A stretch of 64,000 bases of DNA from Thermodesulfobacteriota bacterium (lineage in GTDB: Bacteria > Desulfobacterota_D > UBA1144 > Nemesobacterales > JAJCZQ01): assembly GCA_965215275.1 (NCBI GenBank), contig OZ244044.1:1120001-1184000 (forward strand), given 5' to 3'. How positions within the stretch are numbered: position 1 is the first letter of the stretch; the number at the start of each line of letters is the position of its first letter. Shown here one piece after another: positions 1 through 39,009 of this stretch. Under the pieces are notes generated by a model. It had not been told where the DNA came from and did no database searches. It saw only the letters and a program-made list of their open reading frames with translations. Made by a program: the position numbers and the translations under genes.

Positions 1-2569
1 AGCAGAAGATGGAGAAGAAGTGGGGACCTTACACTCATGGAGCATTAAGGTATACGGGAATTTTTATCAGGGACATGGCAGTGAGATCACTACTAAAGCT
101 ATAAGTCTGCCTTTTATTGCTAATAAGGAATACACACAAAATACTTCAGTAGAAGACACGTATCCTGAAGCAACGGGAGATAATCCGCCTTATACTTATA
201 GATTTGTTCGCGGTACATTACCAGATGGACTAAGCTTTGATCCTGACACCCGGGTGCTGAGCGGAACACCAACTACTGTAGGTAGGAAAACTGCTCAATA
301 TTTAGCAGAAGACGCAAGTGGAGATATAGCAAGGAGGACCTTCTTTATAACTATAACAGCAGGACCGCCAACCTTTTCAGGAGCAACGGTCCCTGAACAG
401 ATATGGACGGAAGGGGTAAGGATACCAACATTACGTTTTCCTAATGCAACGGGAGGTAACGGAACTTTAACATACTTTTTAAGTCCTGCGCAGCCAGTTG
501 GTATCAGCAGACAGGACAACAGGTTATTCGGAACACCTACGGAACCTCAAAGAAGATCTCTTTATACATGGACAGTCAGAGACAAAGATAATGATGAGGA
601 TATTATTGAGTTCTATATTACTGTAAGAGAGAACGTCCCTACCTTCGGAGGTCAGACCATACCTCAGCAGAATTATATAGTAGGCAGAACAATACAAAGA
701 TTAGTATTTCCTCGTGCAACGGGAGAGGAACCGTTAACTTACAATTTAGAAGGAGGTCCGACTAATTTACCAGGTGGATTGAACTTAGTAAGTAATCCAA
801 CAAGTATAATAGGAACACCAACTACAACGGCGGACATTAATTACAGATGGACAGTTACGGACAAAGATGGAGATAAGACAGAACTTCCGTTCAGGATGAA
901 GATAAGGTCTGCATCTGAAGTACCGGACTTCGGCAGTGAGACGGTAGAAGATCAGGTGTGGGGTAACGGCAGAGCAGTAACGTTAACTCTGCCTCAGGCA
1001 ACTGGAGGGAATGGAACTTTAAATTACAGTTTAAGCGGTGTTATACCAAATGGACTTACTTTTAACCAAAACACCAGAACGTTAAGTGGAACGCTCAACA
1101 TTGTTGATACAAGTATATTACCTGTAACTGGAACTTATACCTGGAAGGTAACTGACTCTGACTCAGATGATGACGGTGATTCTGACAGTATTACCTTCTC
1201 TATTACTATAGAAACTGATTCAGAGCCGAGCTTCGGAGGTCAGACCATCCCAAATCAGACATATATTGAAAGGACAACCTTCGGTCTTCCAGTAACGCTG
1301 CCTGAAGCAGTTACAAATACAGGGAATGGGACTTTAATTTACAGTTTAAACCGTAGTTTACCTAGTGGTTTGAGCTTTGATCCTGCTACCAGAGTGATAA
1401 GTGGAACTCCAACTCATAGGCAACCTATTTTTTCAACTTATACATATAGGGTAAGAGATAATGATGGAGATACGGCTAATCTGAGTTTCCGCCTGCAAAT
1501 AATCGGTAACACCCGGCCAAGCTTTCATAATACGATAACAGATAAGGTGTATTATACGTTTACAGCAGTAACGGAAACGTTACCTGAGGCAGCACAAAAT
1601 AATAATCCACCTTCAACTTACAGTTTAACTCCTGCATTACCTGATGGACTGATCTTTACCCCTGCTACCAGAGAGATAACAGGAACACCAACTGCTGCAA
1701 TGTCTGAGACTGATTACACGTATACGGTTGCTGATCTAAATGGAGATACGGACGAGTTAACATTCAGTATCACTGTATTGGCAGTAGCAGACACGGAACC
1801 GACCTTCGGCAGTGAAACTATAGATAACAAGGTATATATAAACTACGGAGAAGCAGTAACGGAAACACTGCCTGAAGCAACGTCAGGGAATGCACCATTA
1901 ACTTACAGTTTAAAGAGGGACCATTTTGGTAGTTTCACTACTGCTTTATTTAAGGGATTGACATTTACTGCAAACACCAGAGAGTTAAGCGGAACACCCA
2001 ATCTTGATATTCATCCAAGTCTATTTCCTGTAACTGCTACTCATACATATAAAGTAAGAGACAATGATGGAGATACAGCAGAGATAATGTTCAGTATAAC
2101 AATAGAAGAAGACAGCGAACCGGACTTCAGCGGTGTGACAATACCAGATCGTGTGTACACGGGGAGAACAATAGAGCTGCCAGAGGCAGCGGGAGGGAAT
2201 TTACCAGTTACTTACAGTATAACACCTGATCTGCCAGCTGGATTGAGATTTAACGAAGTAACGCGGGAAATAAGTGGGACACCCAGGAGTGCATCAACAA
2301 GAACTTACACGTATACGGTAACGGACAGCAATGGAGATACGGATGATGCGACTTTCATGCTCAGTGTAGAGGTTACTTCTACTCCAGGACCAACACCACC
2401 ACGAGGACCAAGAACGTCAGGTACTGATTCAGGCGGAGGTGGAGGAGGATGTGCTGTATCAGAGCAGAGCAGCGTTGATGAAGATATTCTCGGAGTAATG
2501 ACATGTCTGATACTTATACCTGTGTCAGTAACGATAAGAAGAAAGAGAAGAGCTCAGGTAAAGACTTAG
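1..2569 (+). CDS. 5'-truncated surface protein: end of a proprotein-convertase P domain, 8 He_PIG/cadherin-like Ig repeats, Pro/Thr linker, Gly6-Cys-TM-basic C-terminal sorting signal
   Basis: Frame is open from base 2 (AEDGEEVGTLHSWSIKVYG), matching AGTLHSWNIKVYG at the P-domain end of the 36.6-39 kb paralog. Repeats of PxF..T(I/V)..TLPEA.GN..LTYSL..LPxGLxF..SGTP..YTYxVxDxDGD; C-terminus GGGGGGCAVS...LILIPVSVTIRRKRR. Confidence 0.85.
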   Translation, partial: AEDGEEVGTLHSWSIKVYGNFYQGHGSEITTKAISLPFIANKEYTQNTSVEDTYPEATGDNPPYTYRFVRGTLPDGLSFDPDTRVLSGTPTTVGRKTAQYLAEDASGDIARRTFFITITAGPPTFSGATVPEQIWTEGVRIPTLRFPNATGGNGTLTYFLSPAQPVGISRQDNRLFGTPTEPQRRSLYTWTVRDKDNDEDIIEFYITVRENVPTFGGQTIPQQNYIVGRTIQRLVFPRATGEEPLTYNLEGGPTNLPGGLNLVSNPTSIIGTPTTTADINYRWTVTDKDGDKTELPFRMKIRSASEVPDFGSETVEDQVWGNGRAVTLTLPQATGGNGTLNYSLSGVIPNGLTFNQNTRTLSGTLNIVDTSILPVTGTYTWKVTDSDSDDDGDSDSITFSITIETDSEPSFGGQTIPNQTYIERTTFGLPVTLPEAVTNTGNGTLIYSLNRSLPSGLSFDPATRVISGTPTHRQPIFSTYTYRVRDNDGDTANLSFRLQIIGNTRPSFHNTITDKVYYTFTAVTETLPEAAQNNNPPSTYSLTPALPDGLIFTPATREITGTPTAAMSETDYTYTVADLNGDTDELTFSITVLAVADTEPTFGSETIDNKVYINYGEAVTETLPEATSGNAPLTYSLKRDHFGSFTTALFKGLTFTANTRELSGTPNLDIHPSLFPVTATHTYKVRDNDGDTAEIMFSITIEEDSEPDFSGVTIPDRVYTGRTIELPEAAGGNLPVTYSITPDLPAGLRFNEVTREISGTPRSASTRTYTYTVTDSNGDTDDATFMLSVEVTSTPGPTPPRGPRTSGTDSGGGGGGCAVSEQSSVDEDILGVMTCLILIPVSVTIRRKRRAQVKT

Positions 2570-34325: not shown

Positions 34326-35436
34326 ATGAGCGAAGATAACAGACTGGATGTAAACCAGCTTCAGAGCAGAATCAAATCTATCTGGGACTCTCTTTGACAT
34401 CGCAGATAAAAATTCACGGTTGAACGAGATAGAATCTCTGATAAACGCCCACGATTTCTGGAACGATAAGACCGAAGCACAGTCAATTTTAAAAGAGCAA
34501 GCACGTATCAGGAACTCACTAAATACGTGGGAATTGCTGCGTTCTGAGCTTGAAGACCTGGAAGTTCTGATAGAACTTTGTGATGAATCCAACGACGAAG
34601 AACTGCAGAGTGAAATTGATATAAAGCACGGTAATCTGGTCTCCAAGATCGAGGAACTTGAGTTTAAAAAGGTCCTCAGTGCCACCGACGACGAAAGAAA
34701 TGCAATAATGTCAATAAATTCCGGTGCCGGAGGCACGGAAGCACAGGACTGGGCGGACATGTTGTTCAGAATGTACTTAAGATATGCTGAAAGCAAAGAC
34801 TATAAGACGAACATATTAGATCTGCAGGACGGAGATGAAGCAGGAATTAAAAATGTAACCTTTTTAATAGAGGGAAGTTATGCATTTGGCTATTTAAAAG
34901 GTGAAAGCGGTGTCCACAGACTTGTAAGAATTTCGCCATTTGACTCTAATAAGCGTCGACACACCTCTTTTGCCTCGGTTTTCGTATCTCCCGAAGTGGA
35001 CGATCTGATTGAAGTGGAAATTGAGGATAAAGATTTAAGGGTCGACACTTTCAGGGCAAGTGGTAAAGGTGGTCAGCATGTTAACAAAACAGACTCCGCC
35101 ATAAGGATCACACATATGCCAACAGGTATGGTTGTCAGCTGTCAGAACGAAAGATCCCAACATCAAAACAGGATTAACGCTATGAAGATACTGAAGGCAA
35201 GGATCTATGAAATGGAAAGAGAGAAGAAACAAAAGTTAATTGAGGAGATGAACTCAAGTAAGATGGAGATAGGCTGGGGCAGTCAGATACGTTCTTATGT
35301 AATGCATCCATACAGAATGGTCAAAGACCACAGAACGAACTTTGAAGAAAGCAACATAGATGCGGTAATGGATGGAGATATTGACAATCTGATCAAAAAA
35401 TATCTACTGTATCAAGCTGACAATAGAGTAAACTAA
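34326..35436 (+). CDS. prfB: Peptide chain release factor 2 with programmed +1 frameshift at 34392-34398
   Basis: ATG 34326 gives 23 codons ending CTT-TGA-C; the +1 frame continues into the ORF with SPF and GGQ motifs. Confidence 0.97.
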
Positions 35437-36471: not shown

Positions 36472-36501
36472 TTGACATTCATTAATAATACAAAGTAAAA
36501 T
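36472..36501 (+). promoter_or_regulatory. Sigma70-like promoter of the subtilase-like gene
   Basis: TTGACA (36472-36477), 18 bp, TAAAAT (36496-36501), 10 bp before ATG 36512. Confidence 0.55.
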
Positions 36502-36511
36502 AGAAAAAGTC

Positions 36512-39009
36512 ATGAACATCCTGTTTAGAGTAACACCCCCCCCCATAAGTTATTAATTCCCTTTTTCTTTCTTCTGTGCTTTGTAAACGTTGGTGCATAT
36601 GGTCAGACCAGCGTTGATAACTGCGACTCCAGTGCAACGACAGAAGCTACATTGACAGTAGCCGGAAGTACACGTAGTGGAAGTTTAGCTGCCGGTGCTG
36701 ATCCGCATTACTTTCAGATAGACGTGAATGAAAGATTGATCGTGGCTATAATAGTAACCTTCCCCTTCTCCAATGATCAGGGATACAGTTTACAGGTATG
36801 TGACAGCAATAATTATCTGATAGCAAGTGCTGCTGGAGTTCGTATTGAGGATGAGGGTATAGTGAAGGTCACTATAGAAACCCGCCTCAGACCTGGAACG
36901 TACTATATAGTAGTGGGAAGCCGTGTTGCCACGTCCTACAATGTTGCAGTTGTGGTATCTGATCTTAATACTGTATTTGATGATGACTGCCCGGAAAGTA
37001 GTACTACAAATTATCCAAACGACACCTTATACGGTTGTCAGTGGTATCTGAAACGTCAGGCGGGTGAGTTTATATTAGGTGAAAAGACAATACCCGATAC
37101 GGAATATGCAGACATAAACATAGAAGAGGTCTGGGATGATAACGTATTTGGAGCTGAGATTAACGTAGCGGTGGTAGATCATGGCATGGACACAGATCAT
37201 GAGGACCTTGCTGATAACGTGGATACTACACTTTCTCATGATTACTCAGGAAGCGGTGATCTGTACAGTCCTTTCAGTGGTCGCGGCACACGTGTGGCAG
37301 GCATTATAGCAGCAGTGGGTGATAACAGCCTTGGAGTAAGAGGTGTAGCACCTCAGGCAAGCATCTACAGTTATAATTTAGCTGATAACTTCAGTGATAC
37401 TAATGCAAAGGACGCCATGGTCCGTAATAAGGATATAACGGCTGTATCTGTCAACAACTGGGGACCGAAGGACCTGCCGGTTCTTACAGAGGCTTCATCA
37501 GAGTGGGAAGAAGGAGTGGAAACTGGTATAAGAGAAGGATTTGGTGGTAAAGGAGTATTTTACGTATGGGCGGCAGGGGACGGACATGAAGGATCAGACC
37601 AGGCTAATTTTAATGAGTATTCCAACTACTACGCTGTAACTACCGTATGTTCATCAGAGATCGATAGTCATGATAGCTTGATCACTAAGGGTTCGAGTAC
37701 TTTTTCAGAAGAAGGGTTCAATCTATGGGTATGTGCACCGGGTTCTTATATTGTAACTACGGACAATAACGACATTTATACTTTTGAGTTCCCTGGAACG
37801 TCAAATTCAGCTGCTGTTGTTTCAGGAGTAGCGGCACTGATACGGGAGGTAAACAGTGATCTTAGCTGGCGGGATCTGAAACTGATCCTGGCAGATTCAG
37901 CCAGCCAGGGAGACACCCAGTTAATTCCTGTTAGTGATAATTGGAAACCAGGAGCATTTAAATACAGTTCTGATTCAGAACGTTATCGTTACAGTCCGAA
38001 GTTCGGTTTTGGCACGGTAGACGCTGCTGCGGCAGTAGAACTTGCAGGAAGCTGGACCAACGTTCCACCGCCAATGAGACCCGTGACGGTTTCCTCGGGT
38101 AATATCAATACAGTTATCCCGGACTTCACAACGGGAAACTCAGAAGAAGATGTTTCCGTCGTTTTCACACTGACAGTACCTGATATAGATATACCAGACA
38201 CTGAGGGCTTTACGGAATTTATAGAGATCGGTATTAATTTCACTCACCCTTTCTTTCCTTTTTTAAGTATAGAAATAACTTCCCCTGACGGTAGAGTGTC
38301 AAAACTCACTGAGGCATATCCAGCAGAAGCTTTATCACTTTTATTATCTGGCAGATCTCTTACTGTAGACGACTTTGACTATACAGGCAGAGAGCATCGT
38401 TTTGGTTTAGCTAATCACTTGGGAACGGACCCTGCCGGAGAGTGGACCTTGAAGATAACCAACGCTTCAGTCGCAGGTGCGGGGACCTTACACTCATGGA
38501 ACATTAAGGTCTATGGTCATATGTCTGGTGAGACACCTACGTTCGGCGGCTGGACGATACCAGATAAGAATTACGTGCCGGGAACCGCAGTAAAGGAAAC
38601 ACTGCCTGAGGCAACAGCAGGGAATGGAGAACTGACCTACAGCCTTTCCCCTCTTTCTTTACCTGCTGGACTTACTTTCAGTGAAACTGACCGAGTGATT
38701 AGCGGAACACCAACTGCTGTATCTTCCGGCAGTTATACATATACGGTAACGGATGAAGATGGAGATAAGGATGAGCTGAGATTTACTATCAGGGTAACAA
38801 CTACGCCGCCAGAACCAACAGACCCACCAACAACAAGACCACCGACACGAAGACCGACATCATCAGGTACAGGCGGAGGTGGAGGAGGATGTGCGGTCTC
38901 CGATCAGAGCAAAACTGTTCCTGATCTGCTCGCAGCAGTAGCATCTCTGATGCTTATACCTGTATCCGTAGTTATCAGAAGGAAGATAAGGTCTCGGATA
39001 AAGACTTAG
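36512..39009 (+). CDS. Secreted S8 subtilase/kexin-like protein: PPC-like N-domain, S8 domain, P domain, one Ig repeat, Gly6-Cys CTERM; frameshifted in a C9 tract (36536-36544)
   Basis: VAVVDHG, GTRVAGIIAA, GVAPQA, WAAGDG, GTS, WRDLK, FGFGTVDAAAAV, P domain ending WNIKVYG; signal peptide HKLLIPFFFLLCFVNVGAYG lies in frame upstream of the ORF-track start 36652. Confidence 0.85.
36536..36544 (+). repeat. Homopolymeric C9 tract at codons 9-11 of the subtilase-like gene
   Basis: taaca-ccccccccc-ataag. Confidence 0.9.

Follow-up and report, generated by a model that had tools for sequence, protein, structure and literature searches.

A C9 tract between the start codon and the signal peptide of a kexin-like gene

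The window, by which we mean the whole stretch of 64,000 nucleotides analysed here, contains a gene for a kexin-like protein with an NAD kinase gene on one side and an acyltransferase gene on the other. An earlier note on this DNA had described it as a subtilase-like gene, apparently switched off by a poly-C tract. The features of the locus, and of a second paralog in the window, are as follows; the first four were read directly from the sequence.

36472..36477, + strand: -35 box TTGACA of a predicted sigma70-type promoter, with an 18-bp spacer to the -10 box
36496..36501, + strand: -10 box TAAAAT, with ATG 36512 ten nt downstream
36512..36556, + strand: OFF-state reading frame from ATG 36512, 14 codons, stop TAA 36554-56
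36536..36544, + strand: C9 tract, predicted slipped-strand switch (C1:1156536-44 of G000, the genome analysed here)
36544..36603, + strand: hydrophobic core of the signal peptide and predicted cleavage site, out of frame with the ATG
36604..36978, + strand: variable all-beta N-terminal domain (beta strands in the structure model, pLDDT 70-86)
37153..37917, + strand: kexin/furin-like S8 domain (Pfam PF00082, E 1.3e-31; Foldseek; kexin alignment)
38221..38508, + strand: proprotein convertase P domain (PF01483, E 1.1e-11)
38557..38799, + strand: He_PIG Ig-like domain (PF05345, E 1.2e-13)
38872..39009, + strand: Gly-rich linker, Cys, hydrophobic helix and basic tail, a predicted membrane anchor or sorting signal (hydropathy peak at 800-816)
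20..2569, + strand: 3' portion of a second paralog, whose 5' portion precedes the window and carries C11 and C9, out of frame

The elements from which the switch had been proposed were all recovered, namely the TTGACA-18-TAAAAT promoter, ATG 36512 ten bases later, exactly nine C at 36536-44, and an ATG frame that ends at TAA 36554-56 after 14 codons. The long frame runs stop to stop from 36529 to 39009 (826 aa) and has at its N-terminus a hydrophobic HKLLIPFFFLLCFVNVGAYG stretch, with a hydropathy peak at residues 7-23. Its first ATG, GTG or TTG is TTG 36652, and before that only ATT and CTG occur, within the hydrophobic core; the claim that the signal peptide stands in the long frame with no start codon upstream is thus correct. 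Since the long frame is one base off the ATG frame, C10 or C7 would fuse the two, also as had been claimed. The ATG lies 10 nt behind the -10 box (in the paralogs this distance is nearly always 8-10 nt), a position from which a nearly leaderless transcript is predicted, with an inferred transcript start.

Three other readings of the 5' end were rejected. Use of ATT or CTG in the hydrophobic core as the normal start would drop the N-region of the signal peptide, and use of TTG 36652 would drop the signal peptide altogether. A polyproline leader-peptide attenuator was set aside on the grounds that the proline codons are all CCC, that tract length varies by single bases, and that in-frame copies exist. 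Elsewhere in the window, the RF2 gene (34354-35436; PCRF and RF-1 domains) also forms a long frame without a start at its 5' end, which presumably reflects the usual programmed frameshift in this gene.

Fifty paralogs carry 5' C tracts, 28 of them in duplicate

A search of the genome with the S8 domain as query returned 57 paralogous frames, which occupy 175 kb, or 8.8% of the genome. The earlier note had raised the question of whether paralogs carry a C tract as well. This is the case for 50 of the 57, of which 22 have one tract and 28 have two about 70 bp apart; the 5' end of the gene at base 1, which had been missing from view, likewise holds two, C11 and C9. Together the 50 genes account for 78 of the 139 long C/G runs of the genome. 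The lengths of these tracts range from 8 to 13, with a mode of 9 (39 of 78). A promoter-start-tract-signal cassette was found by a pattern search at 47 of the 50, with the same -35 box and a spacing of 17/18 bp.

The OFF paralogs are shifted out of frame in both directions, and 5-7 of the 50 are in frame, where a null of one third per tract would give about 10. This count comprises four copies read from the promoter-proximal start, one from an ATG without a match to the promoter pattern, and two from an ATG at +6. Use of the inner ATG, which has no clear ribosome-binding site, would turn ON another four of the double-tract copies. In some single-tract copies the first leader is fused straight to the signal peptide. 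It is plausible, judging from this arrangement, that two serial tracts act as an AND gate. Natural in-frame paralogs with the predicted kind of N-terminus are represented by P0122, P0002 and P0121, from G000 and two other assemblies. The five copies that share the cassette context of the locus are all C9 and all OFF, which is less spread than fast switching might give.

We found no close ortholog of the C9 gene in 40 relatives. In the same-genus genome G001 the query matches nothing but Ig repeats, and the contig breaks off directly behind the NAD kinase gene; this assembly, which is 80% complete, contains no close match to the S8 family. The C9-gene query had no match in G002-G004, and metagenome scans with the cassette motif and with the protein returned no locus.

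Some further tracts and frames related to the family were noted. Among the paralogs without a 5' tract there are internal runs (G000 C1:668426, 605571 and 518332), namely a C17 before the P domain and a C9 in the Ig stalk, both in frame, and a coding-strand G13 at the split in one gene. Short frames at G000 C1:384592, 496990, 734754, 899109 and 1401695 combine promoter-like sequence, an ATG and C9-C26 with no long frame, and are apparent remnants of switched genes. On the opposite strand at G000 C1:412591-412612, a second-tract cassette resembles the TTGACT-G9-TA promoter motif of the relatives, with a 14-bp spacer, a resemblance that may hint at a shared origin or at an antisense promoter.

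The product is a predicted pseudoprotease with a predicted anchor

The only Pfam domains in the product are S8, P and He_PIG. The structure model (mean pLDDT 72) matched furin/Kex2 in Foldseek with an E-value of 3.5e-29 and a target TM of 0.81. In the kexin alignment Asp217 and Ser425 are kept, the catalytic His is replaced by Arg252, and the oxyanion Asn is replaced by Asp351. The S8-then-P architecture of active S8B kexin/furin-like enzymes is present and their Asp-His-Ser triad is absent, and the two replacements make the product a predicted pseudoprotease. The earlier label "subtilase-like" is right for the fold, but the catalytic His has been replaced by Arg.

Among the tract-bearing paralogs, 49 of the 50 lack Asp, His or Ser (one of these is a partial domain, judged by the position of its Ser), and six of the seven paralogs without a 5' tract keep Asp-His-Asn-Ser. 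In a quick tree, from which one partial row (1505453) was left out, 48 tract-bearing copies form a single branch (support 99) that excludes both the intact copies and the seven outside homologs. It therefore looks as if the switch was acquired and catalysis lost in one early event, with expansion coming afterwards. Because these copies are one clade, the link between tract and triad counts as one event and not 49, and for that reason the result of a Fisher test on the two features (p about 1e-6) was rejected as evidence.

Pooled dN/dS over the 10 closest copies, nine of which are OFF, was 0.38 in the S8 domain, 0.26 in the P domain and 0.22 in the Ig domain, with values of 0.72 for the N-terminal domain and of about 0.7-1.05 for two windows within S8. 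In most windows of the N-terminal domain, 10 close paralogs are 58-68% identical, and the closest paralog changes along the gene in a mosaic-like manner. These patterns fit conserved scaffolds whose exposed parts vary, together with gene conversion, and the gene bodies look maintained. The dN/dS values reflect past selection and gene conversion, and a recent fixation is compatible with them.

At the C-terminus, a tail composed of a Gly-rich segment, a Cys, a helix and basic residues ends 52 of the 57 paralog frames and is predicted to serve as an anchor. The tail of the C9 gene had no match among the NCBIfam sorting models (Synerg-CTERM and kin), and that of the base-1 paralog reached 7.1 bits against a curated cut-off of 22.5 (Cys-type CTERM models).

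Long C runs far exceed chance in a genome with open mismatch repair frames

The genome is a single contig of 1.99 Mb that is 99.87% complete. Among named loci, those closest to its NAD kinase belong to MAGs labelled for the most part Ca. Dadabacteria, Thermodesulfobacteriota or Deltaproteobacteria, and on this basis we treat the organism as Dadabacteria-like. It contains 139 C/G runs of eight or more, 68 of which have length 9, and none of length 7. C runs of lengths 5 to 10 number 373, 36, 0, 6, 57 and 21, and longer ones 14 (length 11), 5 (12), 5 (13) and 1 (26); G runs of lengths 5-12 number 414, 42, 0, 0, 11, 11, 4 and 1, with three longer. When the fall-off from C5 to C6 is extended, less than one run of eight or more C is expected (less than two with a generous ratio), against 109 seen. 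Long C runs of this class are not a product of chance. Among 41 genomes, G000 alone has no run of exactly C7 or G7. Runs of nine or more number 133 in G000 versus 21 in the same-genus G001, 0-3 in three family members from other genera, and 130 and 113 in two genomes from another family. The reading frames of MutS (868 aa) and MutL (617 aa) are open.

Long runs on the + strand number 109 for C and 30 for G; they lie to either side of the points where the GC skew turns, and this strand bias does not follow the GC-skew replichores. The tract-bearing paralogs lie mostly on the + strand, and six of the seven without a 5' tract lie on the - strand.

Tract lengths differ between samples and between assemblies

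We compared the assembly with four runs from three samples of one study, all consisting of contigs with no library type on record. Around the C9 tract (36505-36575) 31-mers are unique, with a locus-specific base at 36534. For 36536-44 itself, the unique contig reaches only to 36492 and pieces from paralogs accumulate; no indel occurs among the pieces listed there, so that switching at the C9 tract is inferred. Tract changes were instead scored in a 16-kb stretch of G000 that has four tracts with unique flanks. Run X2 differs from the assembly at two of these four, each at the full depth of its contig: C13 became C12 at G000 828763, and C9 became C10 at G000 834720. The seven X2 contigs listed (about 14.9 kb) contain no other differing letters and two gaps, both at tracts. 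Runs X1 and X3 equal the assembly over 12.8 kb and 863 bp, with no differing letters and no gaps, and their contigs cross all four tracts as C9, C9, C13 and C9; in run X5 (depth 2-8) no change was listed at the four tracts. Given library types without record, a platform-specific homopolymer error in X2 is possible. That one tract lost a base and the other gained one argues against a simple bias, and a control of 53 unchanged A/T runs is weak, as these are only 6-7 long.

The change from C13 to C12 at 828763 would bring a PF01555 DNA methyltransferase in frame, and in the orthologous methyltransferase of the same-genus G001 the 5' tract is a C9 instead of the C13 of G000. Comparison of predicted proteins gave further differences. 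P0127 reads through C17 in G000; P0061, a member of the same cluster that comes from a different assembly, stops three residues beyond the prolines, which implies C10 there. P0054 and P0135 start at an inner codon and P0134 of G000 is full length, which is at most suggestive of a difference in tract length.

Other tract loci and the repertoires of relatives

The genome has 24 matches to PF01555. C tracts lie at the 5' edge of DNA methyltransferase frames of this kind at G000 C1:828763, 834720, 1001504 and 1814694, and G tracts on the coding strand at G000 C1:1048690 and 1306215; the one at 828763 changes state in run X2. It is possible that these methyltransferase tracts represent phasevarions. 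C9-C11 tracts were also seen inside a family of repeat proteins that resemble TPRs, a label taken from the translation (G000 C1:19539, 20737, 31545, 1068992, 1899949, 1901573, 1914729 and 1964984); some of these are in frame and some are not.

In two relatives from the same order and another family, G011 (L048-L074) and G025, the pattern of a TTGAC box, a G run and TA was matched 58 and 56 times, with no match in a reversed control. The G025 runs are mostly G12-G15. In G011, the spacer is 15 bp in 15 of the 17 rows examined (two loci were counted twice), and 15 of these 17 rows lead into one family of collagen-like lipoproteins. This looks like a second, independent mass-switch repertoire at the promoter level. 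In G001 (L026, L027, L030 and L032), G9-G10 runs occupy promoter spacers of 16-17 bp before predicted lipoproteins with Ig-like repeats.

Discussion

The C9 tract probably works as a slipped-strand on/off switch that gates a predicted surface-anchored and predicted inactive kexin-like protein. A repeat of hypermutable length, belonging to a class that is far above chance, is present in the reading frame region, and a change of one unit shifts the frame of an otherwise intact gene. The proposal of a phase-variable contingency locus is thus supported by the tracts of the paralogs, by in-frame natural copies, and by the length differences at other tracts; what the present analysis adds to it is how widely such tracts occur in the genome, that some copies have two of them, and that the catalytic triad is lost. 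Replication slippage would add or remove one C, about one tract length in three would restore the frame, and in that state the full protein would be exported and held by its C-terminal helix. Slippage at the C9 tract would in this manner flip export on or off in single cells. Each cell would then display only a few of about 50 variants, and 28 copies would need both tracts in frame if the promoter-proximal ATG is the only start. As to purpose, we can only suppose that random display spreads the risk from recognition by phage, predator or host.

The strongest competitor, although we consider it unlikely, is that the locus is a fixed pseudogene or a silent donor cassette, in which the tract was inherited with a duplicated 5' cassette and the gene body feeds gene conversion. 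The lack of an indel among the pieces listed at 36536-44 in the four runs is in keeping with this explanation, as are the mosaic-like change of closest paralog and the hard breaks in a few paralogs, for example an in-frame TGA in the base-1 gene just before the window start. However, the C9 gene keeps a full promoter, a start codon, a signal peptide, an anchor and an open frame of 826 codons, and sample-to-sample changes do occur at other tracts of equal length.

CCC-C is a known +1 slippery site for tRNA-Pro, and recoding on the C run, by slippage of RNA polymerase or by ribosomal frameshifting, could in principle yield low constant expression from every C9 copy, a notion with which the modal length of 9 (39 of 78 paralog tracts) would agree. 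We regard this as less likely still, because OFF copies would need shifts in opposite directions and tract lengths run from 8 to 13, because length changes are seen between samples at the DNA level, and because in relatives G9 runs, just as long, stand between the -35 and -10 boxes, out of reach of any recoding. A homopolymer error of the assembly, with the genes really in frame, might be suspected in a single-contig genome that is probably based on long reads and in which most tract genes are out of frame, but it is very improbable, since X1 and X3 contigs (either of which may be from the source sample) match through C9, C9, C13 and C9 with no gaps, completeness is 99.87%, the gap at lengths 7-8 is sharp and unlike the smear of errors, out-of-frame copies would need opposite corrections, and gene calls for related copies from other assemblies (P0006, P0007, P0009 and P0123) likewise begin downstream of the signal peptide.

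The slipped-strand switch that we favour can be compared with known systems. Chlamydia pneumoniae has in Cpn1054/ppp a paralogous family of about ten small inclusion-type proteins with poly-C at or near the 5' end. Genes of this family are described as rich in indels (PMC4489044). The nalP gene of Neisseria meningitidis likewise has poly-C in a subtilisin-like gene; it is one gene that encodes an active autotransporter with a lipid anchor and a beta-domain, according to the available text of PMC5472700, whereas G000 has 50 tract-bearing paralogs of the kexin type with P and Ig domains and a C-terminal helix, nearly all without a triad. A NalP-type beta-barrel is absent, the C-terminus consisting of a hydrophobic helix and a basic tail. 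As far as its sequence goes, the G000 product is neither a NalP nor an active kexin.

The opa genes of Neisseria gonorrhoeae are, in the portions of PMC13183285 at hand, also dispersed surface paralogs with a repeat in the signal-sequence region and hypervariable segments, and a mean of 1.7 of 9-12 opa loci are in frame, versus 5-7 of 50 in G000. They differ in using a CTCTT pentamer at 9-12 loci in an unrelated protein, as opposed to mononucleotide C at 50 loci, and in having one repeat array per gene (PMC13183285), as opposed to the 28 two-tract copies found here. The Campylobacter phasome, to judge from the accessible parts of PMC8355987 and PMC6321876, shares G/C homopolymers that peak at 9-10 and lie mostly in coding regions, including restriction-modification genes, as in G000. 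It comprises 18-39 loci in C. jejuni, with 81 in an outlier strain, against 139 tracts in G000, where C rather than G is on the coding strand and over half of the tracts serve one family. C. jejuni is moreover without functional mismatch repair (PMC8355987, PMC6321876); with its open MutS and MutL frames, the slip rate in G000 may be lower.

CspA and CspC of Clostridioides difficile likewise have a subtilisin fold with a broken triad and are functional, ligand sensing having been proposed; they are soluble spore proteins, two per genome, and no repeat switch is described for them in the available text of PMC6636752. By analogy with CspC (PMC6636752), and given the loss of the triad, the proteins encoded in G000 most likely act by binding, as adhesin, decoy or inhibitor, and not by cutting. 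Our literature searches, confined to openly accessible articles without their supplements, returned nothing on phase variation in Dadabacteria, nothing fitting on two serial tracts or on repeat switching in marine symbiont MAGs, and no description of this kexin-like switched family.

Taken singly, the locus is a well-supported contingency switch of an ordinary kind, since a single poly-C switch is textbook matter; it is notable as a system, and its setting is of interest to specialists. For a slipped-strand contingency locus of the nalP/opa kind, the scale, the serial tracts and the inactive cargo are unusual. New here are the full family count, the length changes between samples, the pseudoprotease clade and the promoter-tract parallels in relatives. 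One genome carries 139 tracts, versus 18-39 phase-variable genes in C. jejuni, and fifty tract-bearing genes, 28 with serial tracts, belong to one predicted pseudoprotease family, versus 9-12 opa genes. The organism is uncultured and Dadabacteria-like, and its mutS and mutL frames are open. A warning for annotation also follows, in that gene callers place the start of these genes downstream of the signal peptide (P0001), so that neither the export nor the OFF state is apparent.

Existing deep metagenome reads could, through the G000 system, show how many surface variants a cell of a non-pathogen displays, and the same reads could show whether serial tracts tune the odds of switching. A wider reading, which we put forward as a possibility and find somewhat doubtful, is that of a combinatorial surface code, in which about 50 dead kexin-like decoys, adhesins or receptors are governed by C-tract switches and AND gates as part of a lineage-wide strategy. 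If it were true, two tracts in series would cut the chance of being ON from about 1/3 to 1/9, and the dead members would account for the greater part of the family's 9% of the genome, accompanied by a few active proteases that are not switched. Relatives within the order would have built equally large repertoires independently, using promoter G tracts and a different cargo (collagen-like or Ig lipoproteins), and mass contingency switching would extend beyond the classical pathogens, despite the presence of mismatch-repair genes.
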